Assembly (NCBI GenBank): GCA_041661365.1
Contig: JBAZUN010000002.1
Span: 1 to 41,815 of the forward strand
DNA: 41,815 nucleotides
From: Candidatus Latescibacterota bacterium
GTDB taxonomy: Bacteria; Latescibacterota; UBA2968; UBA8231
Direction of reading: 5' to 3'
The translations under genes were made by a program, and so were the position numbers. This document shows positions 8,805-39,005 of the stretch, piece by piece (position 1 is the stretch's first letter; the number at the start of each line of letters is the position of its first letter). The notes under the pieces were generated by a model. That model did no database searches. It was not told where the DNA came from and saw only the letters and a program-made list of their open reading frames with translations.

Positions 8805-8850
8805 AGGCGGCAGCATCGCCGCGGTCCTTGCGCCCACGAGGTCAGTGCCG

Positions 8851-10203: not shown

Positions 10204-10227
10204 GGGCACTGGAGAGGGAGGAGGATC

Positions 10228-11241: not shown

Positions 11242-11270
11242 CGCGCCCGGCCACGGACGGGATCGACCGG

Positions 11271-11303
11271 ATACCCCTGTCCCCCGGGCAGGGGTATTCT
11301 CTT
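11271..11303 (+). terminator. hairpin plus T-rich tail between cydB and cydD (intra-operon terminator or attenuator candidate)
   Basis: ATACCCCTG (11271-11279) pairs perfectly with CAGGGGTAT (11289-11297), followed by TCTCTT. Confidence 0.45.
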
Positions 11304-11341
11304 GATCACGGGCTCTGCGGCGCGATCTCGAGGGCTGCGCC

Positions 11342-23333: not shown

Positions 23334-24836
23334 TCACCCGCCGATCGGTTCCCCCGGATCAGGCCGGTCGACGAAGTGCCGGATCAGACGGTCGGTGGCG
23401 GCATGGGGACGCGGGTCCACGTGCCGGGGCAACTGGTCGTAGATGGGGTAGACCCGCTGCCAGTACCGCTGCCGCAGACCGTCGTAATCCGGGCTCGGAC
23501 CGGAGAGCGCGGAGAACAGCTCGGCGAAGAACAGCAGCTCCTCGCGGTACTCGGGCACCGTGGGATGGAAGGGCACGGCCTGGCCGGCCTCGGGATGCAG
23601 GTCGCGCAGGCACTCCGCCAACCGGGTGAGTTGGCAATGATACTCGCCCCGGGTCAGCTCGATCCGGGTGCAGTTCCCCCAGTCGGGGATCGCCTCGAAG
23701 AGGGGGAGCAGGGGCACCAGCTCGCGGCCGGCCCGGCCGAAGAGCCGCTCGTAGAAGCCGCTGGCCAACCCCTCGGAATCGGCGTCCGGGTCGAGGAAGG
23801 ACTGGGCCGCCTCGTAGAGCGAGAGCTGGTTGAGCCGCGGGGTCATGGTGAAGCAGATCCCGCCCTGGTACGGGGCGGCCGCGCGCTCGCGCCGGCGCTG
23901 GGCGAACAGCCGCGCGAAACGATAATGCGGCACGACGGCGTTCTCCCCCTCGGTGAGGCTGAAGTCCCAGGTGCGGATCGGCCGCTGGCGCGCGATCTCG
24001 TTGGCCCAGGGGATGGCGTTGGCCTCGCCCGCGGGATCGCTGTTCCCGTTGAACCCGAGATTGATCGAGACCACGGTCCGGTCGGGGAAGTCGGGCAGGC
24101 GACGCAGCAGGTGCTGCATCGAGCGGTCGGCCCGCTCGCGGCTGAAGTCCCAGGCCGTGTGCTGGTACTCGGGGATGAACTCGCCCTGCCAACCCTCCGG
24201 GTACTGGAGGTTCCCCCAGCCGAAGAAGGGCGGTCCCCAGGTGCCGAGCTCGATCTCGGCTTGCGGCAGGTTGCAGCGGATGAGCCCGGCGATCTCGGCC
24301 GAGCGGTCGATGTAGGTCTCGGCGGTGCACCCGTTGCGGCTGCAGGCCCCGGGGTCGCCGGGGAAGATGGCCACCCCGTCGACGATCTCGAAGCGGCGGG
24401 TCCAGGCATCCCACAGGTGCCGGACCTCGGCCCACTCCTCAGGCAGGTTAGGGCACAGGGTCCGCCAGTCCGGGCCGACCGTGGCCAGGGCCGTCAGGAG
24501 GATGGTCCGCACCCCGTGCTCGTGACCGTGAGCCGCCACCGCGGTCATCTGGCGGTGGAACTCGCGGCCGGCCTCGGACTCCATCCCCTCGCGGAAGAAC
24601 AGCCTGGGCTCGAGCCAGAGCTCGAAGGCGTTGAAGCCGAAGCCGGCGATCATCTCGATCAGCCGGAACCAGTCCTCGTCGGTCCAGCGATGCGGCAGCC
24701 CCGGGTAGTACATGTTCGGGTTGTACCCGTTAAGCAGGTGGGCCGCGAAGTTGTTGTAGTAGATCCGCTGCTCGCCGAAGTGCGGAGCCCTCGAATCCAT
24801 AGGTTGATCCATCGACTGATTCATAGACCGGTCCAT
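23334..24836 (-). CDS. hypothetical 500-aa protein, possibly TIM-barrel glycosidase-like; last gene of the operon
   Basis: WTDEDWFRLIEMIAGFGFNAFELWLEPRLF and later beta/alpha-like alternation. No signal peptide. Start ambiguous: four in-frame ATGs in the first 13 codons and no SD. Confidence 0.7.
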   Translation of the reverse strand: MDRSMNQSMDQPMDSRAPHFGEQRIYYNNFAAHLLNGYNPNMYYPGLPHRWTDEDWFRLIEMIAGFGFNAFELWLEPRLFFREGMESEAGREFHRQMTAVAAHGHEHGVRTILLTALATVGPDWRTLCPNLPEEWAEVRHLWDAWTRRFEIVDGVAIFPGDPGACSRNGCTAETYIDRSAEIAGLIRCNLPQAEIELGTWGPPFFGWGNLQYPEGWQGEFIPEYQHTAWDFSRERADRSMQHLLRRLPDFPDRTVVSINLGFNGNSDPAGEANAIPWANEIARQRPIRTWDFSLTEGENAVVPHYRFARLFAQRRRERAAAPYQGGICFTMTPRLNQLSLYEAAQSFLDPDADSEGLASGFYERLFGRAGRELVPLLPLFEAIPDWGNCTRIELTRGEYHCQLTRLAECLRDLHPEAGQAVPFHPTVPEYREELLFFAELFSALSGPSPDYDGLRQRYWQRVYPIYDQLPRHVDPRPHAATDRLIRHFVDRPDPGEPIGG

Positions 24837-24851: not shown

Positions 24852-26603
24852 TCAGAGGGTCAGCCGGTAGAGGGTGGTGCCGCCGGCCACGTAGACCTCG
24901 CCCGCCGGGGTGACGGCCATGGTGTTCACCTGTCCCGGCAGCTCGCCGGCAAAAACCCGCGTGCCACTCAGCGGATCGAGCAGCCACAACTGACTGCCGC
25001 AGAACAGGGCCGCCTGCCCCGAGGGCAGGGCCGCCAGGTAGTGGCAGGGGGTTTCCAGCTCCACGGCCCGCTCGAAGCGGAGCTGCGCGGGGTCGAAGAT
25101 CTCGATGCGCTGATCCACGGACAGGGCCACCTTGCCGTTGACCGCGGCCACGCCCTTGAGCGCCACGCCGACCGGGAACTGGTGCTTCCAGACCAGGCGC
25201 CCCTCGGGACTCCAGACCCCGAAATGCAGCGGCTCTTCCTTGGCCGGCAGGCCGTTGGCCCCGCCGCTGGTGATGAAGTAGAGATACTGCCGGTCCGCGG
25301 CCAGACCGACGATGGCCTGGGCCGGCATCGGGTCGTACCAGCTCGTCATCTCCAGGGTGCGGCTGTCGATGCGGGAGAGCCCGCCGCCGTAGGTGCCGTA
25401 CCGGGCCATCCAGCCGGTCCAGAAGTGGCCGTCCGGTCCGACCACGCTGCGACCGGCCGGCCGGATCAGCTCTGGCCCCACCGGCTGCAGGGTGCGGGGG
25501 TTGAGGTTGTTGATCTGGTCCCAGGGCTGGGTCGGGTCGTAGACCACGTGGTCGCCGCCCGAGTAGCAGGCCAGGAAGAGCCGGCCGTCGATCTCGGCCA
25601 GGCCGTAGACCTCGCCGCCGTTGTTGCAGACCACCTGGGAGTTCCACGGCTCAGCCGCGGCCGGGTCGTGGCAGAAGATGGTCTGGCCGAACCCGGCCGG
25701 GCCCCAGATGCGACCGGCCGCGTCGGCGATGATGGTGAGGATGTGGGTGGCCGGCCTGGGCGCGGGAATCGGCTGGAGCAGGGGCGCGACCTCGCTGCCG
25801 TCGTCGAGGTAGTACTCCTGCCCCCGGGTGGCCAGGGCGCGGCCGTCGGCCAGGCCGATGGAGAAGCTCATCCCCGAGTACCGGGCCGGTCGACCAGCCG
25901 GAGTCAAGCGGCCGCTGAGGTCGCCCTCCAGGTGCTCGAGCGTGTGCAGGTCGTAGAAGTCCAGCTCACTGCCGGTCTGCAGGCAGAGGAAGTCCTTGTT
26001 GATCTCCTTGACCGAGGCCCCGGGTCGGCCGAAGCGGCGCCAGGTGCGGCTCTCCATGGACCACAATGACAGGTGGGACTCGGCCGAGCCGCAGGAGATC
26101 AGGATATGCCCCGGGATACCACCGTAGACCAGGCGGCTGTACATGTTGTCCGGGTGGTCCGAGACCCGGCCCAGGTTTTCCAGGGTGCGGCGCTCGGGGT
26201 CGTACCGCAGGAGCACGCACCCGGGCCAGGTACCGCCGTAGACCAGACCGTCGGACCCCAGGCAGAGGTTCCAGATGTACTGCTCCCGCTCGTCGCGCAG
26301 CGGGGCGTCCCACTGCCGTGTGGCCAGGTCGAGGGAGTGCAGGTACCCGTACTGGCCGCAGGTGCCGATGAGGAGCCGCTCGTCGCGCCAGTTGAGCACG
26401 GCCCAGGCCCCGTTGTCGCCGGGCAGGTCCAGGGCCTCGCCGGTTCCGGTGGCCGGGTCGACGAGGACGATGCTGCCGATGGCGCCGGAGGCGAAGTTCG
26501 ACAGCACCACCTTCTCGCGATCACCGTCGCGCGGGTCGTTGAGCTTGGCGATGCCGAGGATCTGGAAGTTGCGGCAGGGCTGACCGATTGGCTGGCAGTT
26601 CAC
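24852..26603 (-). CDS. cytoplasmic beta-propeller repeat protein (583 aa), function unknown
   Basis: Many blade-like repeats (LVYGGTWPGCVLLRYDP, GRIWGPAGFGQTIFCHDP, GRLFLACYSGGDHVVYDP, YLYFITSGG, EVYVAGGTTLYRL). GTG start with GAGG upstream. No signal peptide. Confidence 0.75.
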   Translation of the reverse strand: MNCQPIGQPCRNFQILGIAKLNDPRDGDREKVVLSNFASGAIGSIVLVDPATGTGEALDLPGDNGAWAVLNWRDERLLIGTCGQYGYLHSLDLATRQWDAPLRDEREQYIWNLCLGSDGLVYGGTWPGCVLLRYDPERRTLENLGRVSDHPDNMYSRLVYGGIPGHILISCGSAESHLSLWSMESRTWRRFGRPGASVKEINKDFLCLQTGSELDFYDLHTLEHLEGDLSGRLTPAGRPARYSGMSFSIGLADGRALATRGQEYYLDDGSEVAPLLQPIPAPRPATHILTIIADAAGRIWGPAGFGQTIFCHDPAAAEPWNSQVVCNNGGEVYGLAEIDGRLFLACYSGGDHVVYDPTQPWDQINNLNPRTLQPVGPELIRPAGRSVVGPDGHFWTGWMARYGTYGGGLSRIDSRTLEMTSWYDPMPAQAIVGLAADRQYLYFITSGGANGLPAKEEPLHFGVWSPEGRLVWKHQFPVGVALKGVAAVNGKVALSVDQRIEIFDPAQLRFERAVELETPCHYLAALPSGQAALFCGSQLWLLDPLSGTRVFAGELPGQVNTMAVTPAGEVYVAGGTTLYRLTL

Positions 26604-26643: not shown

Positions 26644-27438
26644 CTAGAAATCTCGAGTGTATCCGGCGGTCCAGCCGCCGTCGACCGGCAGCACCGCGCC
26701 GTTGACGTAGCTGGCCTCGGGCGAGACCAGGAAGAGCACGGCGTGGGCGATCTCCGCCGGTTCGCCCGGCCGGCCGAGCGGCACGTGGGCCAGCATGGCC
26801 TGGGCCTTCTCGCTGTAGCTGCCGCCCGGACCGTAGAACAGGGCCCGGGTGCCGGCCGTCAGGGTGGAGCCCGGCGCCACGCAGTTGGTCAGGATCCCGT
26901 GCGGTCCCAGTTCGAGGGCCATGGAGCGGGTGAGGTTGACCACCCCGGCCTTGGCCGCGACGTACCCCGACTGCAGGCGCAACGGCACCAGGCCGGCGAT
27001 CGAGGCGATGTTGACGATCCGGCCGGAGGGCTGGCGCAGGATGGCCGGGATCACCGCCTTGCTGACCGTGAAGACGCCGGTCAGGTCGACCTGGATGATC
27101 CGGTTCCAGTCCTCGGTGGAGTACTCGTGGATCGGCTTCCGGTTGCCGCTGGTGTTGATCCCGGCGTTGTTGACCAGGATGTCGATCCGCGACCAGCGCG
27201 CGAGGATCTCGGCCACCACCGCTTCCATGCGAGCCGCGTCGGTCACGTTGGCGGTCCAGGCCGCGGCCTGCTGTCCCGCGGCCGTCACCTCGGCTGCAGC
27301 CTTGGCCGCGGCATCGCCGTCGAGGTCGAGGATGGCCACGAGAGCCCCGTTGGCCGCCAGGTCGTCGACGATCGCCCGGCCGATCCCGTTCCCGCCGCCG
27401 GTCACCACGGCCACCTGGTTCTTCAGGTCGACTTGCAT
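26644..27438 (-). CDS. SDR family oxidoreductase (FabG/KduD-like)
   Basis: VTGGGNGIGRA (TGxxxGxG), NNAGI, YVAAKAG (YxxxK). Confidence 0.9.
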   Translation of the reverse strand: MQVDLKNQVAVVTGGGNGIGRAIVDDLAANGALVAILDLDGDAAAKAAAEVTAAGQQAAAWTANVTDAARMEAVVAEILARWSRIDILVNNAGINTSGNRKPIHEYSTEDWNRIIQVDLTGVFTVSKAVIPAILRQPSGRIVNIASIAGLVPLRLQSGYVAAKAGVVNLTRSMALELGPHGILTNCVAPGSTLTAGTRALFYGPGGSYSEKAQAMLAHVPLGRPGEPAEIAHAVLFLVSPEASYVNGAVLPVDGGWTAGYTRDF

Positions 27439-27441
27439 GGC

Positions 27442-27891
27442 TCATCCCTCGCTTTCGACCAGCTCGAGGCTGATCGGCGTGAGCTGGCGCAGGTTGTCGG
27501 AGACTGGGCAGCGCGCGTCCACCTCGTGGAGAAAGGCGCGCTTCTGCTCGGCCGTCAGGTCAGCGTCGATGCGGGCCTGCACGGTGATCCCGGTGAAACC
27601 GGCCCGGGCGTCGCGGGACTTGCCCAGCAGCACGTCGACGTCGAGGTCACCGGCCACGGTCACCTCGAGACCGCGCAGGGCGATCTTCTGCTGGTGGGCC
27701 GCGATCCGGGCGATCGAGGCGATGCACCCGGCCAGGCTGCAGAAGAGGAGCTCGAGCGGGGTCGGACCGGTGTCGGTGCCGCCCTGATTTTTGGGCTGAT
27801 CGATGCAGACCAGGTGGTCGCGGACGCGGCTCTCGATCCGCATCCCCGCTCCCAGGGTGGCGCTGACCCGCACTTCCTTGACGGTGGCCAT
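27442..27891 (-). CDS. OsmC/Ohr family protein
   Basis: PTPLELLFCSLAGC and ARCPVSDNL, the two conserved Cys contexts of OsmC. Confidence 0.85.
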   Translation of the reverse strand: MATVKEVRVSATLGAGMRIESRVRDHLVCIDQPKNQGGTDTGPTPLELLFCSLAGCIASIARIAAHQQKIALRGLEVTVAGDLDVDVLLGKSRDARAGFTGITVQARIDADLTAEQKRAFLHEVDARCPVSDNLRQLTPISLELVESEG

Positions 27892-27909: not shown

Positions 27910-28584
27910 TCAGACGGCGGATCGCCGCGCCGCGGCGATGGTGACCAGCAGTTGCTCGGCGGCGGCCTGGAGGTCGGCCATGCGACCTTCCTCGTACGCC
28001 GGCGTGGCCAGCCCGTTGGCCAGCACGGTGACGACGCTGGCGCCGGCGCGGATGTAGTCGCCCACGTTCCCCAGGTTGATCCCGCCGGCCGCCATCAGCC
28101 GCACCCCGGGGAAGGGACCGACGACCTCGGCGAAGAAGCCCGGCCCCACGGCCGAGGCCGGGAAGACCTTGATGACGTCGGCCCCGGCCCGCAGGGCCAG
28201 CATGATCTCGGTCGGCGTGACCGCCCCGACGACGCTGACCACGCCGAGCCGGCGGCAGGCGGCCACCACCTCGGGGCAGAACCCCGGGCCGGCGATGAAG
28301 GAGGCACCGGCCTGCACGGCCAGCTCCACGGTGCCGGGGTCCATCACCGTGCCGGCCCCGACCGCGCAGCCGGCCGACAGCTCGGAGGCGGCCCGGTGCA
28401 CCAGGGCCAGGGCGTCGGGCATGGTCAGGGTGTATTCGATGCAGGAGATCCCGGCCTCGCAGTAGGCCTGACTGGCCGCCATCAGGTGGTCTAGCTGGTG
28501 GGTGCGGAAGACCGGTAGCAGGCCCGGGCCGCACATCCGCTCGATCAGCTCCTCGCGCTCCATCGGTTTCTCTCTTCTCTTCAT
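27910..28584 (-). CDS. KDPG/KHG (Eda-type) class I aldolase family protein
   Basis: IEYTLTMPDA, GAGTV, DVIKVFPA (Schiff-base Lys context), MAAGGI. An alternative ATG start exists at 28563. Confidence 0.85.
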   Translation of the reverse strand: MKRREKPMEREELIERMCGPGLLPVFRTHQLDHLMAASQAYCEAGISCIEYTLTMPDALALVHRAASELSAGCAVGAGTVMDPGTVELAVQAGASFIAGPGFCPEVVAACRRLGVVSVVGAVTPTEIMLALRAGADVIKVFPASAVGPGFFAEVVGPFPGVRLMAAGGINLGNVGDYIRAGASVVTVLANGLATPAYEEGRMADLQAAAEQLLVTIAAARRSAV

Positions 28585-28599: not shown

Positions 28600-29799
28600 C
28601 TACTGTTCGTGGCAGGCCCGGAACAGGGCCTCGATATTGGGCAGCGGGATCTCCGGGGTCAAGACGTTCGAGGGGCCCACCAGGTAGGCGTGGTTGCCGG
28701 CCCGGCCCAGCAGGTCCACGGTGTGGCGCACGGCGGCGCGCACCTGGGCCGGGGTCTGCCGCGCGATCTCCTGGTCGCTCAGACCGCCGCAAAGGGCCAC
28801 CCGGCCGCCGAACTCGCGGGCCAGGGCCGCCAGGTCCATGGCCTCGGGCTGTAGCGGATCGAGTACGTCGATCCCGGCGTCGATCAGGTCGCCGACGATC
28901 GCCGTCACGTTGCCGCAACTGTGGAAGATCACGTCCAGCCCGACCTGGTGGGCCTGGTCGAAGATCCGGCGGTACCGGCCGAGGAAGAACCGTCGCCACA
29001 TCTCCGGGGAGATCATCAGGGCCTGCTGCGTGCCCCAGTCCTCGCTCATGAACAGGCCGTCCACCCCGGGCAGGCGGCCCCAGGCGCGGACGATCTCGAG
29101 GTAGTACTCCGTAAGGGCGTCGAGCAGCCGCTCGCTCTCCCGGGGGTGGAGGCACAGGTCCTCGAGGGTATTCTCGAAGCCCCGCAGGCAGTGCATCCGC
29201 TCGAAGAGCATCAGGTGGGTCATGCCGGCGAAGTACTGCTTGCCGCCGAAGCGTCGGAGGGAGGGGAGGACCCCGTCGAGCCGGCCCGGTAGTCGTGGGT
29301 CCGGCATCCGGGTCAGGTAGGACTCCAGCTCGCTCCAGTCAGGCAGGGGCGCGGCCACGGTCGAGGCGCCTACCCCGCCGGCCGCGTGTCGCCAGCGGGT
29401 GCCCCACTCGTCGGTCCACTCGGCCTCCCGGGTCAGGGCCGCGACCAGGTCCACGGCCTCCGGGTCGTCGGGCCGCTGGTACCCCAGGAAGATGTCGTAC
29501 GGCTGGGCAAAGACCACGTCGTCGGGGTACGCGGCGAACAGCTCGATCAGGGCCTTGCCGTGGCGCAGGATGACGTCGAGGGACAACCGCCGCAGCCGCA
29601 CCGGACAGCGGGGACCGCCGCGCCGGTGCAGGACTTGCTGCACCCAATCGCGACCGGCCGGCTGGGCCTCCATGCCGCGGTTGACCGCCTCGTTGAAGCG
29701 GTCGATGGCGGCCCGGACCTGGGCCGCCGGGAGCGGCGAAGGCTCAGGTATAGGTGCCGAGCCGCAGTCCCTGTTCGACGAAGTACCGGTAGGTGTCAT
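28600..29799 (-). CDS. URO-D superfamily protein, MtaA-like (HSCG motif), paralog B
   Basis: IFHSCGNVTAIVGDLIDAGIDVLDPLQPE core. ATG 29799 overlaps the upstream gene by 56 nt; ATG 29673 (MEAQPAG...) is an alternative start. Confidence 0.75.
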   Translation of the reverse strand: MTPTGTSSNRDCGSAPIPEPSPLPAAQVRAAIDRFNEAVNRGMEAQPAGRDWVQQVLHRRGGPRCPVRLRRLSLDVILRHGKALIELFAAYPDDVVFAQPYDIFLGYQRPDDPEAVDLVAALTREAEWTDEWGTRWRHAAGGVGASTVAAPLPDWSELESYLTRMPDPRLPGRLDGVLPSLRRFGGKQYFAGMTHLMLFERMHCLRGFENTLEDLCLHPRESERLLDALTEYYLEIVRAWGRLPGVDGLFMSEDWGTQQALMISPEMWRRFFLGRYRRIFDQAHQVGLDVIFHSCGNVTAIVGDLIDAGIDVLDPLQPEAMDLAALAREFGGRVALCGGLSDQEIARQTPAQVRAAVRHTVDLLGRAGNHAYLVGPSNVLTPEIPLPNIEALFRACHEQ

Positions 29800-30853
29800 A
29801 GTCCACCTGGTCGGGAACGGAGTGATCGACCTGCAGCACGTACCCGCTGCCGGCCATGGCCGCGGGGACCTTGGCCTCCAGCTCGGCCCGGACCGCGCCC
29901 AGGTCGTTGGTCACCAGCACCCGTGCGTCCATGCCGCCGATCAGGGCCAGCCGGTCGCCGTACTCGCGCTTGAGGCGGACCAGGTCCATGCCGGCCTTGG
30001 CCTCCAGCGGCTGCAGACAGTCGATGCCCGCTTCGAGCAGGGCCGGCAGCAGGGCGAGGATGCGGCCGTCGCTGTGAAGGATGACCTTCAGCCCGCGCTG
30101 GTGGGCAAAGCCGAACAGCCGCCGGTGCGCCGGGAAGATCAGCTCGCGATACATGGCCGGGGACATGAACGGCCCGTTGGCGAACCCCAGGTCGTCCCAC
30201 ACCCACATCCCGTCGGGCAGCCCCTCGCGCGCGAAGAGTATCTCCAGCAGCTCGATGGTCAGCTCTCCGTAGAGATCGGCCATGGTGCGCACCCATTCCG
30301 GGTCCAGGGCCATCCCGGCCAGCAGGTGCTCGTGGCCGCACATCAGGGTCATCAGGTCAAAGGCGCCGACCACCCCACAGGCCAGGAAACGCTGATCCTG
30401 GTCGCATTGCCGGCGGGCCTGCCGGTACAGCTCGAGGTTGATCCGCCTTTCGAGCTGACCACGGTCGCGCAGTCGGGGCTCGAGCTGGTGCTCCCACCCG
30501 GCCCGGTCCCGCACCAGGAAGTCCACGTGCTCGGGTGCGCCCGAGACCCCCTTGGGCCAGCGGAGCACGGCGCCGTTCCCGTCGCGGACCAGGCGGGTGG
30601 TCGCCGTCTCCTCGAGGACCTGCTCCCCGGCGTCCAGGTCGGCGACCAAGTCGAGGAGCTTCCCCGAGATGGAGAGGGCGCCGCTGCTTCGCCTGAGGTC
30701 GAGGTCGAAGTGGTCCTCGATCGCCTCGCCGGGCGGGAGATGACCCTCGGCGGTCCAGCGTCGGGCGGTATCGGCCCAGAAGACCTCGAACAGGCCGATC
30801 CGGTCCACCGGCTCGTGGGCCAGGATCCGGCGGATCCGCTCGCGGCTGGTCAC
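29744..30853 (-). CDS. URO-D superfamily protein, paralog A (HSDG in place of HSCG)
   Basis: RERIRRILAHEPVDRIGLFE N-terminus; ILHSDGRILALLPALLEAGIDCLQPLE core. The GTG start overlaps the Ldh_2 TGA (GTGA). Confidence 0.8.
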   Translation of the reverse strand: MTSRERIRRILAHEPVDRIGLFEVFWADTARRWTAEGHLPPGEAIEDHFDLDLRRSSGALSISGKLLDLVADLDAGEQVLEETATTRLVRDGNGAVLRWPKGVSGAPEHVDFLVRDRAGWEHQLEPRLRDRGQLERRINLELYRQARRQCDQDQRFLACGVVGAFDLMTLMCGHEHLLAGMALDPEWVRTMADLYGELTIELLEILFAREGLPDGMWVWDDLGFANGPFMSPAMYRELIFPAHRRLFGFAHQRGLKVILHSDGRILALLPALLEAGIDCLQPLEAKAGMDLVRLKREYGDRLALIGGMDARVLVTNDLGAVRAELEAKVPAAMAGSGYVLQVDHSVPDQVDYDTYRYFVEQGLRLGTYT

Positions 30854-31917
30854 AGCCAGGCCGGCGCGATCAGGCCCAGGTCGGCCACCAGCCCGCGCAG
30901 GCTGTCGCGCACGTCGGACGGCAGGTCGATCCCCTGCTTCAGGGCCCGCTGCCTGGCCTCCCACTCCTTCTCCCCGGGGAGCCAGATCCGCTCCTGGCCC
31001 TTGGCCTTGGGCGCCTGCCGGATCTCGCGGATCAGGGCATCCATCCGCCGACGGTACTGATCGAGGGGGATGAAAGCCCCCACGTCGAGGGCCAGGAAGG
31101 CGTGCCCGTGGTCGGTGGGCAAGGAGGGGTCGCTGTCGATCCAGCTCCCGATGGCCCCGGTCAGGCTCGCGCCGCTGAGCAGTCCGGAGAGAACCTCGAT
31201 CATCAGGGCCAGGCCGTACCCCTTGTGACCGGCCATCGGGGTCAGCGAGGCCTGGTACGGGTAGAGGTTCGGATCCAGGGTCGGCACCCCCTCGTGGTCG
31301 ACCAGCCAAGTCGCCGGGATCGGCTGATTGAAGGTTGCGGCGATGCGGATCTTCCCCCCGGCCACGGCCGCGGTCGAGACGTCGAGGAGGATCGGTGGCT
31401 CCTCTCCGGCCGGGGCGGCAAAGGCGAACGGGTTGCTCCCCAGGACCGGGCCACGCGAACCGGGCGCGGTGACGCTGGCCGTGTCGCTGGCCATGGCCTG
31501 ACCGACCATCCCGTGATGAACGGCGAGCTGGGCATAGTACCCGGCCGCGCCGAAGTGGCAACTGTTTTTAACCGTGGCAAAGCCGATCCCGCAGGCCTTG
31601 GCCTTGGCGATGGCCGTCTCCATGGCGAAGATCGCGGTGACCATGCCGATGGAGGAGTTGCCGTCGACCACGGCCCAGGCCGGACCCTGGCGGACCACGA
31701 CCGGCCGACCTCGTGGATTAAGACCGCCCCCGCGCAAGCGCCGGGCGTACCCCCGCAGGCTCTTGGTGCCGTGGGTGAACACGCCCCAGGTGTCGGTGGT
31801 GACCAGCACCTCGGTGGCGGTCCGGGCGTCCTCGGGACTCAGGCCGCAGAGGGTGAGGGCCTCGAGGGCCAGCCCTTCCAGGGCCGCGACCGGGACGGGA
31901 CCGGACTTCGCATCCAT
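30850..31917 (-). CDS. Ldh_2 family dehydrogenase (malate / L-sulfolactate / ureidoglycolate / diketogulonate reductase family)
   Basis: GVFTHGTKSLRGYARRL, NSCHFGAAGYYA, GSNPFAFAAP, AGHKGYGLALMIEVLSG. Confidence 0.85.
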   Translation of the reverse strand: MDAKSGPVPVAALEGLALEALTLCGLSPEDARTATEVLVTTDTWGVFTHGTKSLRGYARRLRGGGLNPRGRPVVVRQGPAWAVVDGNSSIGMVTAIFAMETAIAKAKACGIGFATVKNSCHFGAAGYYAQLAVHHGMVGQAMASDTASVTAPGSRGPVLGSNPFAFAAPAGEEPPILLDVSTAAVAGGKIRIAATFNQPIPATWLVDHEGVPTLDPNLYPYQASLTPMAGHKGYGLALMIEVLSGLLSGASLTGAIGSWIDSDPSLPTDHGHAFLALDVGAFIPLDQYRRRMDALIREIRQAPKAKGQERIWLPGEKEWEARQRALKQGIDLPSDVRDSLRGLVADLGLIAPAWL

Positions 31918-31950: not shown

Positions 31951-32925
31951 TCAGACGACGCCGTTGACCACGTTGACCGCCGGCTCGTCCCTCAGGGCCC
32001 GGGCCACGGCCTGGGCCGCGCTGGTCCGCAGGGCACGCACGGCCTGCACCGTGGCCGAGGCCACGTGGGACGAGACCACCACCTGGTCCAGGCTCCGTAG
32101 CGGGTGGTCCTTCGGCAGGGGCTCGGGACTGGTCACGTCGAGCGCGGCGCCGGCGATCCGGCCGCTGTTCAGCGCGGCCACCAGGTCGTCGGTGATCACC
32201 AGGTCGCCCCGGCTGGCGTTGACCAGCAGCACCCCGGGCTTCATCCGGCTGATGGCCTGGGCGTCGATCATCCCGCGGGTCTGGGGCGTGCTGGGGCAGT
32301 GCAGGGAGACCAGGTCGCTTTCGGCCAGCAGTTGGTCCAGAGCCACCGGCTCGGCCCCGGCCTGCTGAATCGCCTTGGCCGGGACCAGGGGATCGTGCAC
32401 CAGCAGGCGGCACTTGTGCGGCCGGAGCCGGGCCGCCACCTCCCGGCCGATCCGGCCGAAGGCCACCAGCCCCACGGTCATGTACTTGAGGGCGCGCAGT
32501 TGCTCCAGGGAGCCGGCCAAGCCCCAGCCGCCGCCGCGGAAGAGCAGGTGTCCGGGCACGACCTGCCGCACCAGGGTCAGGATCAGGGCCAGGGTGTGGT
32601 CAGCCACCTCGTCGATGCAGTAGTCCGGGACGTTGCAGACCGGGATGCGGCGCTCGGCCGCCGCGGTCAGGTCGACGTTGTCCACGCCGATCCCGTACCG
32701 GACGATGACCCGGCACTGCTTCATGGCGGCGATGGCCTGGGCCTTGACCGGGGCGAACTGGGTCAGCACCGCGTCGGCGTCAGCGACCAGCGTCGCGACC
32801 TCGGCCTCGGTGCGGCACTGGGCCGGCACCAACCGGCAGCCCAAGGGACTGAGTACCTCCTCCTCCAGGTCGAACGGCCCGAAGGTGGCATCGGTGATGG
32901 CGACCTTCCACGTCGGCTTGTTCAT
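31951..32925 (-). CDS. D-isomer-specific 2-hydroxyacid dehydrogenase family protein
   Basis: VGLVAFGRIGREVA (NAD fold), LVNASRGDLV, AALDV, SSHVAS (R/E/H triad contexts). The ATG overlaps the E2 TGA (ATGA). Confidence 0.85.
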   Translation of the reverse strand: MNKPTWKVAITDATFGPFDLEEEVLSPLGCRLVPAQCRTEAEVATLVADADAVLTQFAPVKAQAIAAMKQCRVIVRYGIGVDNVDLTAAAERRIPVCNVPDYCIDEVADHTLALILTLVRQVVPGHLLFRGGGWGLAGSLEQLRALKYMTVGLVAFGRIGREVAARLRPHKCRLLVHDPLVPAKAIQQAGAEPVALDQLLAESDLVSLHCPSTPQTRGMIDAQAISRMKPGVLLVNASRGDLVITDDLVAALNSGRIAGAALDVTSPEPLPKDHPLRSLDQVVVSSHVASATVQAVRALRTSAAQAVARALRDEPAVNVVNGVV

Positions 32926-34166
32926 GGGATCAACCTCGCTCCAGGGTTCTCGACCAGGACCCGGACCCGCTCCAGGAAGCGGGCCGCCGGGCCGCCGTCG
33001 ACGATGCGGTGATCGAAGGTCAGGCTTAGCCAGAGCCGGTCGCGCGGCACCACCGCGTCCCCCACCACCGCGGCCTGCCGGGTGATGCGGCCCACCCCGA
33101 GGATGGCGCACTCCGGGGCATTGATGATCGGGGTGAAGGCATCGATCCCCATGGGGCCGAGGTTCGACACGGTGAAGGTGCCGCCGCCCATCTCCTCGCT
33201 GGCCAGTCGCCGGCTGCGGGCCCGGTCGATCAGGTCGCGCGAGCGGGCCGCCACCTCGCGCAGGGTCAGGCCCGGCACGTCGCGGATCACCGGCACCACC
33301 AGGCCGGCCTCGGTGTCGACCGCGACCCCGACGTGGATCCCGCCGCAGAGCACGATCCGCTCGCCGGTCCACCGCGAGTTGAGCTGCGGGTGCTCGGCCA
33401 GGGCCACCGCGACCAGCTTGATCAGGATGTCGGTGAAGCTGGGCAGCGGCTCGCCGTCGGTCGCCAGGGCCTTGAGCTGGGTCCGCAGGCTGACCAGGTG
33501 GGTGGCGTCGGCCTGGACCATCAGGGTGACCGCGGCCGTGGCGGTCTGGCTCTGCATCATCTTCTCGGCGATCATCCGTCGGGCCGTACTAACCGGCACC
33601 TCGCGGTCCGGCGACGCGGTGAAGCGACGACCATCCGCGGGTACAACCGGGGAGCCGCCACCTGCAGTCGCTGCGGCGCGGACGTCCCGCTCGCGGATCC
33701 GGCCGGACCTGCCCGAGCCGGTCACCACGGCCAAGTCCACGCTTAGCTCCGCGGCCAGGCGGGCTGCCCGGGGCGAGACCGGAACCGTTGGTCGGATCGT
33801 GGGTGCTGGCCCTAAGGCAACCGGTTCGGTCGCGGTCGTGCCGCCGGCAGCAGGAGCTCCCTCTGCCTCGCTCGGTTCCGCGGCAGGACGGACCGGGAGC
33901 GGACCGGCGGGCGGCTCTTCACCGGCCGCGAGCAGGTACCCCAGCACCTGACCGACCGGGATCATGTCCCCTTCGGCCGGACTGCCGGGCGGGATGCACA
34001 GCAGGCCGCTGTCCGTGGCCTCGACCTCCTGCACCGCCTTCTCGGTCTCCAGGGAGAAGAGCGGCTCCCCGGCCTTGACCTGCTCGCCGTCCTGCTTGAG
34101 CCACTGGACAAAGACCCCCTCGTCCATGGACCAACCCAGGCGGGGGAGCGTGATCTCGATGGCCAT
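32922..34166 (-). CDS. 2-oxoacid dehydrogenase complex E2 (dihydrolipoyl acyltransferase)
   Basis: Lipoyl domain (LFSLETEKAVQEVEA), E3/E1-binding domain (PRAARLAAELSVDLAVVTGSGRSGRIRERDV), catalytic FDHRIVDGGPAARFL. AGGAAG RBS. Confidence 0.9.
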   Translation of the reverse strand: MAIEITLPRLGWSMDEGVFVQWLKQDGEQVKAGEPLFSLETEKAVQEVEATDSGLLCIPPGSPAEGDMIPVGQVLGYLLAAGEEPPAGPLPVRPAAEPSEAEGAPAAGGTTATEPVALGPAPTIRPTVPVSPRAARLAAELSVDLAVVTGSGRSGRIRERDVRAAATAGGGSPVVPADGRRFTASPDREVPVSTARRMIAEKMMQSQTATAAVTLMVQADATHLVSLRTQLKALATDGEPLPSFTDILIKLVAVALAEHPQLNSRWTGERIVLCGGIHVGVAVDTEAGLVVPVIRDVPGLTLREVAARSRDLIDRARSRRLASEEMGGGTFTVSNLGPMGIDAFTPIINAPECAILGVGRITRQAAVVGDAVVPRDRLWLSLTFDHRIVDGGPAARFLERVRVLVENPGARLIP

Positions 34167-34176
34167 ATCCCTTCCT

Positions 34177-36186
34177 CTACTCGTCAAGCAGGTCGCGCAC
34201 GGCCTGGGCGATGCGTTGCGGGCTCGGGGTCACCAGGGCTTCCAGCGGCGGGCTGTAGGGGGTGGGCACGTGAGCCCCGTGCAGCCGCCGCACTGGCGCG
34301 TCCAGCTCGTCGAAGCCGGATTCGGCCACCCGGCCGACGATCTCGCTGGCGAATCCGAACGGCCCGAAGTCCTCGTCGACCACCAGCAGGCGGCCGGTGC
34401 GGCCGACCGAGGCCAGGATCGTCTCCAGGTCCAGGGGCGCCACGGTCCGCGGGTCGATCAGCTCCACCTCGATCCCCTCGCGGGCCAACTCCTCGCTGGC
34501 CTGCAGGCTGTGGTGGACCATCAGGGCCAGAGCCACCACGGTGATGTCCCGGCCCGGGCGGACCACGCGCGCCCGGCCGAACTCGATCTCGTAGTCGTCC
34601 TCGGGCACCGGCCCCTTCACCCCCATCAGCTCCCGGTGCTCGAGGAAGAGGACCGGGTCCCGGCCGCGCAGGGCCCGGGTGAACAGCCCCTTGGCATCGT
34701 ACGGGGTGGACGGCACCGCGACCAAGAGCCCGGGGAAGTGGCCGTACATCGCGTAGTAGCTCCCCGAGTGGTGGGTGGCGGCCGAGTGACCGATGCCGAT
34801 GCAGCCGCGCAGCAGCACCGGCATGGCCAGCCGGCCGTTGCTGAGGAACTGGATCTTGGCGATCTGGTTGACCACCTCGCCCACCCCGTCGAGGATGAAG
34901 TCGGCGAACATGAAATCGACCACCGGCCGGGTCCCGGTCATGGCCGCGCCGCCGGCCAGGCCGACGAACCCCCGCTCGCAGATCGGGGTGTCGCAGAGCC
35001 GCACCGGACCGTACAGGTCGTACAGTCCGGTGGTGGTGGCGAAGTTTCCGCCCCGCTTGCCGATCCCCTCGCCCAGGACGAAGATCCCGGGGTCAGCGGC
35101 CATGGCCGCGACCAGGGCCTCGTGGGTGGCCTTGGTGTAGGAGATCTCGCGGCCGGTCTCGGGCGCCGGCGGCTCGGGCAGCGGGACCGCCTCGCTCACC
35201 ACGTGCTGGGCCAGGCGGTCCGGCTCGGGCCACGACTCAGATTCGGCGAAGCGCTGGGCCTCCTCGACCCGAGCCTGGATATTGGTCGTGATCGCCTCCA
35301 GCTCCTCGGGCTTGGCCAGCCCTGCTTCAAGCAGGTGGGTGCGCAACCGGGAGATCGGGCAGCGGGCCTTCCAACCTTCGACCTCCTCGCGGGTGCGGTA
35401 GGTGTAGTCGCCCATCCCTTCGGCGTGCGGCCGGGTGCGGTAGGTGACGCACTCGAGCAGGGTGGCCCCCTCGCCGGCCCGAGCCCGGGCCACGGCCTCG
35501 CCGGCGGCCCGGTGCACCGCCACCACGTCGTTCCCGTCCACCTGCACCCCGGGCAGACCGTAGGCCGCGGCGCGGGCCGCGATATTTGGATTGCCGGCCG
35601 AATAGGAGATCGGCACCTCGGTGGCGAACTGGTTGTTCTCGCAGACGAAGAGGACCGGGAGCTTCCAGATGCTGGCCATGTTGAGGCCCTCGTGGAAGGC
35701 CCCGTTGTTGGCGGCACCGTCGCCGAAGAAGGCCACGGCCACCCCGCCGTCCTGCCGCAGCTTGAAGGAGTACCCCCCGCCGGTCGCCTGCAGGATGCAC
35801 GGCCCGACGATCCCGCTGGTCCCCATCAGGCCGATCTCGGGGGCGAAGAGGTGCATGCTGCCGCCGCGACCGCCCGAGCACCCCGAGGCGCGGCCGAACA
35901 GCTCGGCAAAGAGCCGGCGCGGGTCCAGGCCCTTGGCCAGGGCATGGCCGTGCCCCCGATGGGTGCTGAAGACCACGTCCCGGGCGCTCAGGTGGGCGCA
36001 GACCCCGGTGGCGACCGCCTCTTCCCCTACATAGGTATGGCAGGCGCCGTGGACCAGGCCCCGCCCGTGGGCCCGGGCCAGTTGCTCCTCGCACTGCCGG
36101 ACCAGCACCATGGTGCGGTAGAGCGTCAGCAGGCCTTCCCGGTCGGGTTCGGCCCCTGCCGCGGACCGCTTCCTCTGCTTGCCCAT
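34177..36186 (-). CDS. fused E1 alpha-beta thiamine-diphosphate-dependent 2-oxoacid/acetoin-type dehydrogenase component
   Basis: Alpha part with GDGAANNGAFHEGLNMASIWKLPVLFVCENN (GDG-X-NN TPP motif). P/E-rich linker. Beta part (FVLGEGIGKRGGNFATTTGL...DTPICERGF...). ATG 36186 follows a GAGGGGGA. Confidence 0.9.
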   Translation of the reverse strand: MGKQRKRSAAGAEPDREGLLTLYRTMVLVRQCEEQLARAHGRGLVHGACHTYVGEEAVATGVCAHLSARDVVFSTHRGHGHALAKGLDPRRLFAELFGRASGCSGGRGGSMHLFAPEIGLMGTSGIVGPCILQATGGGYSFKLRQDGGVAVAFFGDGAANNGAFHEGLNMASIWKLPVLFVCENNQFATEVPISYSAGNPNIAARAAAYGLPGVQVDGNDVVAVHRAAGEAVARARAGEGATLLECVTYRTRPHAEGMGDYTYRTREEVEGWKARCPISRLRTHLLEAGLAKPEELEAITTNIQARVEEAQRFAESESWPEPDRLAQHVVSEAVPLPEPPAPETGREISYTKATHEALVAAMAADPGIFVLGEGIGKRGGNFATTTGLYDLYGPVRLCDTPICERGFVGLAGGAAMTGTRPVVDFMFADFILDGVGEVVNQIAKIQFLSNGRLAMPVLLRGCIGIGHSAATHHSGSYYAMYGHFPGLLVAVPSTPYDAKGLFTRALRGRDPVLFLEHRELMGVKGPVPEDDYEIEFGRARVVRPGRDITVVALALMVHHSLQASEELAREGIEVELIDPRTVAPLDLETILASVGRTGRLLVVDEDFGPFGFASEIVGRVAESGFDELDAPVRRLHGAHVPTPYSPPLEALVTPSPQRIAQAVRDLLDE

Positions 36187-36198
36187 CCGATCCCCCTC

Positions 36199-36236
36199 TT
36201 GACAATCATCATATGATCTGATGAAAATACTGTCAA
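36199..36236. promoter_or_regulatory. overlapping divergent promoters with a central palindrome (candidate GntR operator)
   Basis: Minus strand: TTGACA (36236-36231), 17-nt spacer, TATGAT (36213-36208). Plus strand: TTGACA (36199-36204), 18-nt spacer, GAAAAT (36223-36228). Perfect palindrome ATCATATGAT at 36208-36217. This is an AT-rich island in GC-rich DNA. Confidence 0.65.
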
Positions 36237-36332
36237 AGAAATTCTCCGGCAAGACTCCGGCGCCAGGTGATCCAGCCGCACCGGTGGCCGGAGCCGCTCC
36301 TGGCCTCGGCGCAGGGGCAGGTGGAGGACGAG

Positions 36333-37016
36333 ATGGAGCCGACGGTTCCCCGGCAGACCCTGGGCGAGGTGGTGGTGACCCGGGTCAAGCAGCTCATCGT
36401 GGACCAGGGACTCCAGCCAGGAGACCGTCTGCCCACCGAGCAGGAGCTGGCCGTGCGCTTCGGGGTCTCGCGGCTGAGCGTGCGCGAGGCTACCCGCACC
36501 CTGAACTTCCTGGGGATCATCCGCGCCGCCCCCCGCCGCGGCCTGACCGTGGGCGAATTCGACGTGACCCGGATCGCCGAGATCCTGGGGTACCACCATG
36601 CCCTGGTCCGGTACCCCGGCCGCCAGCTCGTGCAGGCCCGGCTGGTCATCGAGGTCGGCGCCCTGCCGTTCGCCGCCGAGCGATTGGCCGGCGAGCCCGA
36701 GCTGCGCGAGCATCTCCTGGAGCTGGCCGCGCGCACCGAGGATGAGACCTTGCCCGAGGCGTTCATCGAGGGGGAGATCGCCTTTCACCGGGCCCTGGTC
36801 GAGACCAGTGGGATCGGGCCGCTGGTGCTCTTCAGCGACATCCTGCACGCCTTCTTCCGGCGGTTCCAGGAGACCGTGGTGGCCCACCGGCACGACGAGG
36901 GGGTGAGGCAGCATTGCCAGCTCGTCGAGCTGCTAGGACGCGGCCGACTGGCTAAGGCCGAGGCCGTGCTGCGGGGCCATCTCCAGGCCTTCCTGGCCGC
37001 CGAGCAGGAAGGGTGA
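36333..37016 (+). CDS. GntR family (FadR-like C-terminal domain) transcriptional regulator
   Basis: PGDRLPTEQELAVRFGVSRLSVREATRTLNFLGII winged-HTH region and an all-helical C-terminal domain. GGAGGACGAG precedes the ATG. Confidence 0.9.
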   Translation: MEPTVPRQTLGEVVVTRVKQLIVDQGLQPGDRLPTEQELAVRFGVSRLSVREATRTLNFLGIIRAAPRRGLTVGEFDVTRIAEILGYHHALVRYPGRQLVQARLVIEVGALPFAAERLAGEPELREHLLELAARTEDETLPEAFIEGEIAFHRALVETSGIGPLVLFSDILHAFFRRFQETVVAHRHDEGVRQHCQLVELLGRGRLAKAEAVLRGHLQAFLAAEQEG

Positions 37017-37760: not shown

Positions 37761-39005
37761 ATGCCCGTCAGCAAGAAGGACCGCGAGATCATCCGTAGCC
37801 TGGCCGCCGAGGTGGCCGAGATCGCCGCGCTGCCCGTTCAGCAGGAGACCATCAGCCTGTGGAAGGCGCTCAACGGGCTGCGGCCGGTCCGGCCGATGGT
37901 GATGATCGACCAGGTCTGCTGGCACGAGATGGAGGTCGACGGCGAATTGACGGTCCGGTCCGAGGATCCGTTCTGCCGCGGCCTGGAGGGCGGGCTGCGC
38001 CGCACCCTGTACTCGTGGAAGCACATGCCCGGGGACATGGTCGTCGAGCCGGTGATCGAGGTCGGCAAGGCGATCCGCAATACCGGGTTCGGGGTGCAGA
38101 CGATCGAGCAGACCGCGGCCACCGACCCGAAGAACGGGGTCGTGGGTCACTACTACATCGACCAGATCCGGGACGAGGGGGAGCTGGAGAAGATCCAGAC
38201 CCCGCGGATCAGCCACGACGAGGCCGCCACGGCGGAGCTGGAGGCCAAGGCGCGGGAGCTGTTCGACGGCCTCCTCGAGGTGAAGATGCAGGGGGCCTTC
38301 CCCTCGTTCGCGCCTTGGGATGCCATCGTCCAGTGGCGCGGGGTCGAGGGGCTGCTCTACGACCTGGCCGACCGGCCCGAGTTCATGCACCGGATCATCG
38401 GCCGGCTGACCACGGCCTATCTGTCGATGCTCGACCAGCTCGAGGCTCAGGGGCTCCTCGGCCACGGGCAGGCCACCATCCACTGCACCGGGGCGTACAC
38501 CGACGAGCTGCCGGCCCCGGGGTTCGATCCGGCGCGGCCCCGGGCCTGCGACCTGTGGACCTGCGGCATGGCCCAGATCTTCTCTACGGTCGGCCCGGCC
38601 ACCCACCAGGAGTTCGAGCTGGCCTACGCGCGGCAGTGGTACGCCCGCTTCGGCCTGGTCTACTACGGGTGCTGCGAGCCGCTGGACGAGAAGATCGCGA
38701 TCATCCGCCAGGTGCCCGGGGTGCGCAAGATCAGCATGAGCCCCTGGGTCGACCAGGAGCGCGGGGCCGAGCGGATCGGGGGCGACTTCGTCTTCTCGCG
38801 CAAGCCGTCACCGGCCTTCCTGGCGATCCGGCAGTGGGAACCGGCCGCGGTCGAGCGCGACCTGCGGCGGACTCTGGAGACCTGCCGGCGCCACGGCTGC
38901 CCGCTGGAGTTCATCCTCAAGGACATCAGCACCGTGGCGTACCAACCGCAGCGGCTGTGGGAGTGGGCCGCGATCGCCGCACGCGTAGTCCGCGAGAGTG
39001 CCTGA
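37761..39005 (+). CDS. hypothetical protein, possibly a distant URO-D/MtaA-like TIM barrel
   Basis: AGGAG RBS and natural composition. The C-terminal part (VRKISMSPWVD...FVFSRKPSPAF...EFILKDISTV) is only loosely reminiscent of URO-D-superfamily barrels, so the assignment is weak. Confidence 0.65.
   Translation: MPVSKKDREIIRSLAAEVAEIAALPVQQETISLWKALNGLRPVRPMVMIDQVCWHEMEVDGELTVRSEDPFCRGLEGGLRRTLYSWKHMPGDMVVEPVIEVGKAIRNTGFGVQTIEQTAATDPKNGVVGHYYIDQIRDEGELEKIQTPRISHDEAATAELEAKARELFDGLLEVKMQGAFPSFAPWDAIVQWRGVEGLLYDLADRPEFMHRIIGRLTTAYLSMLDQLEAQGLLGHGQATIHCTGAYTDELPAPGFDPARPRACDLWTCGMAQIFSTVGPATHQEFELAYARQWYARFGLVYYGCCEPLDEKIAIIRQVPGVRKISMSPWVDQERGAERIGGDFVFSRKPSPAFLAIRQWEPAAVERDLRRTLETCRRHGCPLEFILKDISTVAYQPQRLWEWAAIAARVVRESA

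Follow-up and report, generated by a model that had tools for sequence, protein, structure and literature searches.

URO-D-superfamily genes of the window and their surroundings

The window, i.e., the whole analysed stretch of 41,815 nucleotides (nt) from a Candidatus Latescibacterota bacterium (GenBank assembly GCA_041661365.1, contig JBAZUN010000002.1; G+C content about 70%), carries four putative open reading frames (ORFs), P0001 to P0004, that had been singled out earlier for their likeness to the URO-D superfamily. All four were found to be open at the coordinates given in Table 1. P0001, P0002 and P0003 scored well above the Pfam cut-off for URO-D (PF01208, 23.9 bits), which bears out the layout assigned to them by the first-pass annotation, and the motifs reported there were found as described: H-S-C-G in P0001 (F-H293-S-C295-G) and P0003 (F-H271-S-C273-G), and H-S-D-G in P0002 (L-H260-S-D262-G). 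The three proteins represent separate families, termed A (P0001), B (P0002) and C (P0003); a fourth family, D (about 355 amino acids, aa), was found in related loci, which are designated here by L-numbers.

The genes of P0001 and P0002 overlap by 56 nt. As the ATG at 29799 is the sole canonical start upstream of the conserved N-terminal helix of P0001, and as the identical 56-nt overlap is present in the relative L003, the overlap is real; it suggests that the two genes are translationally coupled. Both are part of a tight minus-strand operon, which runs from E1 and E2 through the D-2-hydroxyacid dehydrogenase, Ldh_2, P0002, P0001, the aldolase, OsmC and the short-chain dehydrogenase (SDR) to the propeller-like and the 500-aa protein. 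The stop codon of the Ldh_2 gene overlaps the start of P0002 (GTGA). The gene map, obtained by scanning about 34 ORFs of the window against Pfam, thus confirmed that two of the paralogs lie within a dehydrogenase/aldolase operon. It also agreed with the earlier statement that the window holds no corrinoid protein, no activase and no haem-synthesis gene; jackhmmer, run with two real corrinoid proteins as queries on every window ORF of 90 aa or more, likewise returned nothing. By Pfam, no dehydratase was recognisable in the operon. The propeller-like and the 500-aa protein were kept only in the closest relatives (L003 and L006, 75-78% identity); the widespread form of the cluster, described below, lacks them.

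Table 1. Coordinates of the URO-D-superfamily genes, the operon around P0001 and P0002, and its regulator
Feature	Coordinates	Strand	Remarks
P0003, family C	7609..8760	+	383 aa; PF01208 78 bits; stand-alone, between SCO1/SenC and cydAB
Protein of no recognisable family	23334..24836	-	500 aa; no Pfam match; last gene of the operon
Beta-propeller-like protein, possible lactonase	24852..26603	-	583 aa; weak sub-threshold SGL/Kelch Pfam matches only
SDR	26644..27438	-	Pfam
OsmC-like protein	27442..27891	-	Pfam; conserved in L003, L005 and L006
KDPG/KHG-type aldolase (Eda-like)	27910..28584	-	PF01081 110 bits
P0001, family A	28600..29799	-	399 aa; PF01208 86 bits
P0002, family B	29744..30853	-	369 aa; GTG start; PF01208 70 bits
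Ldh_2-family (malate/L-lactate/ureidoglycolate/sulfolactate-type) 2-hydroxyacid dehydrogenase	30850..31917	-	PF02615 365 bits
D-isomer-specific 2-hydroxyacid dehydrogenase	31951..32925	-	324 aa; PF02826, PF00389; frame from ATG 32925
E2 acyltransferase with lipoyl domain, part of 2-oxoacid dehydrogenase complex	32922..34187	-	Pfam
Fused E1 alpha-beta (thiamine pyrophosphate-dependent) of 2-oxoacid dehydrogenase	34177..36252	-	Pfam E1_dh, Transket_pyr, Transketolase_C; first gene of the operon
GntR/FCD regulator, divergent	36267..37016	+	Pfam; GntR/FCD gene also beside the cluster in L001 and L002
P0004, remote URO-D-superfamily relative	37761..39005	+	414 aa; neighbours: LamG-like gene, GDSL hydrolase gene

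The remaining two genes lie outside the operon. P0003 is situated just upstream of cydAB/cydDC; cytochrome bd is a haem protein and not a haem-synthesis enzyme. A meaningful link between P0003 and cydAB was considered and rejected, as the neighbours of P0003 orthologs were unrelated and showed no conserved context. The syntenic locus L086 has the order M20 peptidase, GGDEF, SCO1, URO-D (family C), NifU and HAD, and as it lacks the cytochrome bd genes, the cydABDC block of the window (8845-15057) appears to have been inserted between the family-C gene and nifU.

P0004, which had been put forward as a possible distant relative, matched nothing in Pfam, NCBIfam or the PDB sequences, the last also when searched with a family profile. 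However, the profile of its family (2320 representative clusters, about 410 aa) matched that of family A with an hhalign probability of 94% (E=1.2e-7), collinear over 247 columns, and those of families B and C more weakly. E76, Q272 and G303-C304-C305 are invariant in this family, and its G-C-C aligns onto the H-S-C of family A. Judged by these profiles, P0004 is a remote branch, and the window holds four members of the superfamily. The LamG-like neighbour of P0004 is cytoplasmic, the other being a GDSL/SGNH hydrolase.

Relation to HemE and to MtaA-type methyltransferases

Database homologs were 52-93% identical to the window protein in family A, 62-79% in family B and 53-76% in family C. Each family has 30-80 invariant columns and retains 55-79% identity across phyla, with families A and B each spread over about ten phyla. 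This is incompatible with decayed, non-enzymatic relics, a possibility that the first-pass annotation had raised; with their frames intact, P0001, P0002 and P0003 are, by this conservation, intact enzymes under strong constraint. Conserved residues comprise C65, H293, C295 and N378 together with W128, D130, E131, W132, H138, E200, R201, D254, Q317 and Q343 in family A, H260, D262 and H344 in family B, and H271, C273 and H358 in family C. Profile-profile comparison by hhalign linked family A to family C with E=1.6e-43 and to family B with E=3e-21. All homologs bear generic names in the source databases, i.e., 'uroporphyrinogen decarboxylase (family protein)' or 'hypothetical protein', and a literature search for characterised members of families A-D found none and surfaced only general papers on the UroD superfamily.

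A scan of species-representative genomes yielded 290 relatives of family A. The best 80 of these (L006-L085) all stem from metagenome-assembled genomes, with no isolate genome among them, which may account for the family being uncharacterised. Phyla represented among these best 80 are Gemmatimonadota, Chloroflexota, Planctomycetota, Acidobacteriota, Hydrogenedentota, Nitrospirota, Latescibacterota, Spirochaetota, Verrucomicrobiota, Omnitrophota and Armatimonadota. The closest of them, from Gemmatimonadota, shares 72% identity and the gene order of the window.

Compared with characterised enzymes, the three proteins reached no curated score. Against the hemE model TIGR01464 (equivalog cut-off 302.95 bits), P0001 and P0002 scored 17.0 and 13.8 bits and P0003 had no match; the MtaA/CmuA-type models TIGR01463, NF040654 and NF041608 gave 29-51 bits versus cut-offs of 235-600, the best values being 51 bits for P0001 and 35 each for P0002 and P0003. 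Within NCBIfam, the MtaA/CmuA-type models matched with E=1e-8 to 1e-14 versus E=2e-3 or no match for hemE. A six-frame search for [MLIF]RQAGR gave no match anywhere in the window, and the N-termini of the proteins read differently. In the alignment with HemE, whose N-terminal half is of low reliability, the Tyr164 column holds Cys in family A, Pro in family B and Trp in family C; at His339, families B and C have His as well, and family A has Asn. PDB sequence searches with single sequences and family profiles were marginal for both HemE and MtaA (E=1e-5 to 1e-3). Taken by these comparisons, P0001, P0002 and P0003 are neither HemE nor orthologs of characterised MtaA, MtbA or CmuA, as had been anticipated from the sequence. 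A relation to MetE was rejected, since there was no Pfam Meth_synt match, PRK00957 scored 16.6 bits versus 258, and Foldseek gave E of about 1e-5 to 1e-6.

The UroD-type TIM-barrel fold itself is present. AF2 models of P0001 and P0002 were confident (pLDDT 93.8 and 92.2), and Foldseek matched the family A and B models to 6w2o, 1r3y and 3cyv with E of about 1e-13 and TM-scores of 0.62-0.73. They were equally distant from HemE and MtaA (E about 1e-13, TM-scores of about 0.6-0.73, 12-19% identity). The HemE structures just named share with the families this similar structural distance, a D-x-W-G/'SP' motif region and, for families B and C, the His at the barrel end, but they have Phe-x-Lys where the families have His-x-Cys or His-x-Asp, and the haem-pathway context is absent here. 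Likeness to MtaA, MtbA and MtsA (4ay7) lies in the barrel (Foldseek E=3e-13, TM-scores 0.63/0.73), and likeness to these and to bacterial Mlp proteins in the His-x-Cys at the same strand position in family A, in paralogs occurring together and in a corrinoid gene beside some orthologs. In contrast, identity to MtaA is only about 16-17% and Asp takes the place of the second ligand in family B; and unlike MtaA and Mlp, the families occur in non-methanogens, many of them aerobic, and in sugar-acid operons with no activase found nearby.

A third group for comparison is formed by the O-demethylases OdmB, VdmB and MtvB and by CdmB (9rui), which are methyltransferases I (MT-I, substrate:corrinoid-protein methyltransferases) on the same barrel and serve the catabolism of methylated compounds. 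A small corrinoid-protein gene adjoins them, as it adjoins family A in L010, L015 and L169 (see below). However, the sequence relation of CdmB to the window families is marginal (E=0.03-0.2), the substrates on which this group is known to act, in strict anaerobes, are phenyl methyl ethers or methyl halides and not carbohydrates, and known systems encode a methyltransferase II (MT-II) and an activase nearby, neither of which was seen here.

The metal site was compared residue by residue. By HMMER alignment, H293 and C295 of P0001 correspond to the zinc ligands H240 and C242 of M. mazei MtaA (4ay7). The complete triad H240/C242/C319 does not recur in sequence in any of the three window families, the equivalent residues being H293/C295/N378 in family A, H260/D262/H344 in family B and H271/C273/H358 in family C; the position of C319 is thus occupied by His in P0002 and P0003, as in HemE. 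Cys65 and Asn378 occurred together in 118 of 121 family-A sequences, whereas Val or Ile takes the place of Cys65 in those families that have His378. Because of this correlated swap, it is possible that Cys65 is a migrated third ligand, which would give family A a putative site of one His and two Cys like that of MtaA. UroD-type MT-I enzymes may lack zinc (PMC13222342).

Operon context and corrinoid-protein neighbours of the families

To survey the surroundings of family A, all ORFs of 86 loci were clustered, and neighbours were counted in those 57 loci whose flanks reached at least 5 kb to either side of family A. An SDR was most often found within 10 kb (26 of 57), followed by Ldh_2 and the Eda aldolase (23 each), a 2-hydroxyacid dehydrogenase (22), E1 (20), a PfkB kinase (17), and an FAH hydrolase and a metallo-beta-lactamase-type lactonase (12 each). 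Eda was the most frequent direct neighbour (17 loci); Ldh_2 was directly adjacent in 12. Hydrogenedentota and Nitrospirota share a nearly unchanged operon of 15 genes, of which related versions occur in Planctomycetota. The L053 operon comprises a 2-hydroxyacid dehydrogenase, LacI, an SDR, an MFS protein, a DUF6786 protein, a KDG/KDGal kinase, Eda and family A, and then Ldh_2, a further 2-hydroxyacid dehydrogenase, a 2,4-didehydro-3-deoxy-L-rhamnonate hydrolase-like protein, a lactonase, E1 alpha, E1 beta and an SDR. The gene content looks like an oxidative hexose or deoxyhexose route of the De Ley-Doudoroff or fuconate/rhamnonate type, and no enolase-, IlvD/Edd- or UxuA/UxaA-type dehydratase was recognisable in the conserved operon. 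Family B accompanies family A in only about nine loci, and families C and D are frequent co-residents.

Some features of these operons vary. E1 alpha and beta form one fused protein in the window and L005, with a lipoyl domain joined to them in L001 (13855-16269), whereas elsewhere they are separate; several operons of the L053 type have E1 alpha/beta but lack E2, and no E3 was seen in any locus. The DUF6786 protein (about 360-390 aa; L053 7124-8293, L001 12785-13858 with PF20583) recurs in 8 of the 57 loci, carries a Tat-like signal in L060 and is a further candidate enzyme for the step that the operon lacks. In L023 (9875-12337) the family-A gene is followed by an in-frame second URO-D gene (Pfam URO-D 260 bits) with a complete MtaA-like H-x-C...C triad, a candidate partner methyltransferase; its assignment as HemE was rejected, as it lacks RQAGR and carries H-x-C...C and is hence MtaA-like.

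Family A also occurs in other settings. In five Acidobacteriota loci (L037 5152-11161, L027, L052, L064 and L066) a cytochrome P450 directly adjoins the family-A gene, and three of the five also have a GH42 beta-galactosidase and a TonB-type outer-membrane barrel. GH36-like glycosidases are often found beside family A in Planctomycetota, and a GH2 glycosidase in L170. These settings would suit an action on a modified free sugar better than a sugar-acid dehydratase. The Acidobacteriota arrangement recalls the P450 sugar-demethylase loci of marine Bacteroidota, the sugar activity of the adjacent P450 being only putative.

A motif scan followed by Pfam revealed a protein of MtaC architecture (B12-binding_2 PF02607 and B12-binding PF02310, 210-220 aa) encoded directly after family A. 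In L010 (Limnocylindrales) and L015 (Chloroflexia), 13-51 nt separate the family-A gene from the start of the gene for this protein, and the same arrangement was found in L169 via close relatives of these two. The three pairs lie inside the Ldh_2/E1/E2/PfkB/Eda cluster, in two different arrangements, and their family-A proteins are 57-58% identical to P0001 and 72-78% to one another. L170, a sister sequence of this subclade, lacks the corrinoid gene. In L010 and L015, Pfam scans of the neighbours found no other methyltransferase component within 10 kb; aldehyde dehydrogenases, an aldehyde:ferredoxin oxidoreductase, a molybdo-enzyme, ABC transporter parts and a UxaE-like protein were seen there. 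The linkage between family A and the corrinoid protein is therefore real but rare, and as the three family-A proteins form one subclade, it may reflect a single evolutionary event. A reciprocal metagenome scan centred on the corrinoid protein returned 80 loci with no family-A ortholog and almost no genes of the sugar-acid operon, indicating that the pairing is confined to one subclade.

The URO-D-like genes found next to corrinoid proteins show the patterns known from families B and C, H-x-D...H or H-x-C...H. Since H-x-D...H is the commonest pattern among these corrinoid-adjacent relatives, the H-S-D-G variant of P0002 is, to judge from its relatives, not a degenerate site. Five metagenome contigs (L101, L113, L119, L121 and L126) encode one corrinoid protein followed by two or three URO-D paralogs; these are distantly related to families B and C (22-37% identity), and the contigs resemble published 'mlp' clusters. 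Clusters of several UroD paralogs around one corrinoid protein are a known architecture and, where a tetrahydrofolate methyltransferase is lacking, a recognised unsolved class (PMC10418091).

In an IQ-TREE phylogeny that comprised no full-length characterised MT-I or MT-II sequences and represented HemE by alignment-derived fragments, family B was sister to corrinoid-adjacent proteins (support 99/97) inside a larger corrinoid-adjacent clade (100/99). Family D was sister to a corrinoid-adjacent protein (100/99), and family C grouped with corrinoid-adjacent proteins. Family A formed a long branch inside an A+C group (96/96). The placement of the HemE fragments was not resolved (87/45); a true HemE was sought as outgroup among the fetched loci and none was found. 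The lack of a corrinoid protein, upon which the first-pass annotation had built, thus holds for the window and for most family-A loci, but it is weak evidence against corrinoid dependence in view of the pairs in L010, L015 and L169 and the corrinoid-adjacent relatives of families B, C and D.

Candidate functions of families A and B

The explanation that we favour, tentatively and with somewhat less than even confidence, is that families A and B carry out corrinoid-protein-dependent methyl transfer, probably to remove the methyl group of a methylated sugar or sugar acid, and that the gene of the partner protein lies elsewhere. The corrinoid part of this proposal is suggested by the affinity to methyltransferase models, the three gene pairs, the corrinoid adjacency of relatives, the phylogeny and the possible ligand migration; the sugar part is suggested by the P450/GH42, GH36-like and GH2 contexts of family A, which would fit a modified free sugar. 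Both families would then belong to the radiation of corrinoid-dependent methyltransferases (MtaA, the MT-I O-demethylases, CdmB) and not to HemE. The first-pass annotation had named a characterised corrinoid-dependent methyltransferase with a distant partner as a reading contrary to its own; this may apply in part to the mechanism and does not apply at the level of characterised orthologs. Its proposal of a non-textbook URO-D activity was supported in that the proteins are neither HemE nor MtaA/MtbA/CmuA orthologs and that a sugar-derived acid is a reasonable substrate, whereas a decarboxylase gained no specific support.

The setting would be a GntR-controlled operon for the oxidative breakdown of a sugar or sugar acid, in which a sugar dehydrogenase, a lactonase and a 2-keto-3-deoxy-acid aldolase would act in turn and the C3 hydroxy-acid dehydrogenases and the 2-oxoacid dehydrogenase complex would process the products. 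Methyl transfer would link a methylated substrate of carbohydrate origin to the cobalt of a small corrinoid protein, the product of a gene outside the window. An O-methyl ether on a sugar, a sugar acid or its C3 cleavage product appears the most suitable substrate, and demethylation would render a blocked sugar degradable. Family A would be the substrate-specific methyltransferase, whose putative metal site (C65/H293/C295; H260/D262/H344 in family B) may bind or activate the oxygen or sulfur leaving group. The coupled family B may be a paralog of second specificity, a methyl-offloading partner or a heterodimer partner. Aerobic demethylation of 6-O-methyl-galactose by P450s is known (PMC6292453), and the P450 6-O-methyl-D-galactose demethylase of marine Bacteroidota solves the same problem of removing a methyl ether that blocks catabolism, but it does so with an unrelated fold and oxygen-dependent chemistry that releases formaldehyde (PMC6292453).

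Several observations weigh against the proposed demethylation. A corrinoid protein was found within 10 kb in just 2 of the 86 surveyed family-A loci, jackhmmer finding none further, and L010, L015 and L169 belong to one Chloroflexota-type subclade. Neither a reductive activase nor a methyl-corrinoid:tetrahydrofolate methyltransferase was seen in the examined loci, and the window has neither of these nor a corrinoid protein. The third zinc ligand of MtaA, C319, aligns with the invariant Asn378 of family A. Co(I) chemistry is less common in aerobes, and many of the host lineages are aerobic. An adjacent P450 might make a second demethylase redundant. Finally, the dehydratase gap in the 15-gene operon would be explained more simply if family A filled it.

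This last point leads to the strongest alternative, which we consider rather unlikely: a TIM-barrel enzyme that depends on a metal but needs no corrinoid. Family A, and possibly family B too, would then fill the missing step of the operon, as a sugar-acid dehydratase, as an eliminase of some other leaving group, or as an isomerase/epimerase yielding the 2-keto-3-deoxy acid on which the KDG kinase, the KDPG aldolase and the FAH hydrolase act. The conserved operon (L053) has an SDR resembling sugar dehydrogenases, a lactonase, a KDG/KDGal kinase, Eda and a rhamnonate-type hydrolase but no dehydratase, as is also the case for the window operon; Eda is the commonest direct neighbour of family A, and the other 84 of the 86 loci are free of a corrinoid protein. 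In addition, the invariant Trp, Asp, Glu, His, Arg, Gln and Asn residues of family A resemble a sugar-binding pocket, and the His/Asp/His triad of family B is typical of hydrolytic or lyase metal sites. However, the UroD superfamily has no known dehydratase or isomerase, and neither the corrinoid gene directly after family A in three loci nor the corrinoid-adjacent closest relatives of families B, C and D would be explained. Where family A stands alone beside glycosidases or P450s, with no dehydrogenase or lactonase, a dehydratase would have no substrate, and the missing enzyme of the operon could instead be the DUF6786 protein or the 500-aa protein of the window.

It appears improbable that the enzymes are corrinoid-dependent but, like MtsA and MtaA, use a methyl thioether or thiol in place of an O-methyl ether, e.g., a methylthio-sugar acid or some other methyl-sulfur compound arising in the pathway. 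The putative His and two Cys site (C65/H293/C295) has the ligand composition of thiol-activating MtaA-type enzymes, related multi-paralog Mlp clusters have been proposed to serve methyl-sulfur/methyl-selenide metabolism (PMC10418091), and the Ldh_2 protein of the operon also scores against L-sulfolactate dehydrogenase models. However, no sulfur-metabolism gene was seen in the operons, Asp replaces Cys in families B and D, the context is dominated by ordinary sugar-acid enzymes and glycosidases, and the metal site on which this explanation draws is itself putative, being read from the sequence. Even less probable is a cofactor-free, HemE-like decarboxylation of a carboxylated non-porphyrin intermediate: in fold, HemE is no more distant than MtaA (Foldseek E about 1e-13, TM-scores of about 0.63-0.73) and the G-H-G His of HemE has a His counterpart in families B and C, but RQAGR is missing from the window, the Tyr164 equivalent is not conserved, the hemE scores of 14-17 bits compare with a cut-off of 303, His-x-Cys/Asp replaces Phe-x-Lys, and the proposed pathway has no evident need for a decarboxylation. 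That the proteins are true HemE or decayed paralogs has next to no probability, as only automatic 'uroporphyrinogen decarboxylase' labels favour HemE, the hemE model scores, the absence of RQAGR and the Tyr164 column all speak against it, the context is catabolic and the conservation is incompatible with relics.

Among environmental genes, thousands bear the label 'uroporphyrinogen decarboxylase' without being haem enzymes; the results show that at least four conserved subfamilies are covered by it. Two of them, A and B, form a translationally coupled pair in a recurring sugar-acid operon of Gemmatimonadota, Planctomycetota, Chloroflexota, Acidobacteriota, Hydrogenedentota, Nitrospirota and further phyla, whose hosts are almost all uncultured. 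If family A provides the missing dehydratase or isomerase, it would add a new reaction class to the UroD fold. A more far-reaching version of the demethylase proposal, in which families A, B, C and D together constitute a widespread and previously unrecognised corrinoid-dependent, oxygen-independent system for the cleavage of carbohydrate methyl ethers, is at present doubtful. In this version, candidate substrates are 4-O-methyl-glucuronate, 6-O- or 3-O-methyl-galactose, 2-O-methyl-fucose and a methoxy C3 acid after aldol cleavage; a UroD-type methyltransferase would hand their methyl group to a small corrinoid protein, and an oxidative route of De Ley-Doudoroff or fuconate type would take up the product. 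Should the families nevertheless prove to be sugar demethylases, carbohydrates would join phenyl ethers, amines, thiols and halomethanes as substrates of corrinoid methyltransferases, and the B12 demand of aerobic heterotrophs would be tied to polysaccharide turnover. Such a system would fill a known gap, namely what becomes of the methylated sugars of plant and algal cell walls, and would provide a non-P450 route for soil, peat and freshwater bacteria that degrade methylated sugars.

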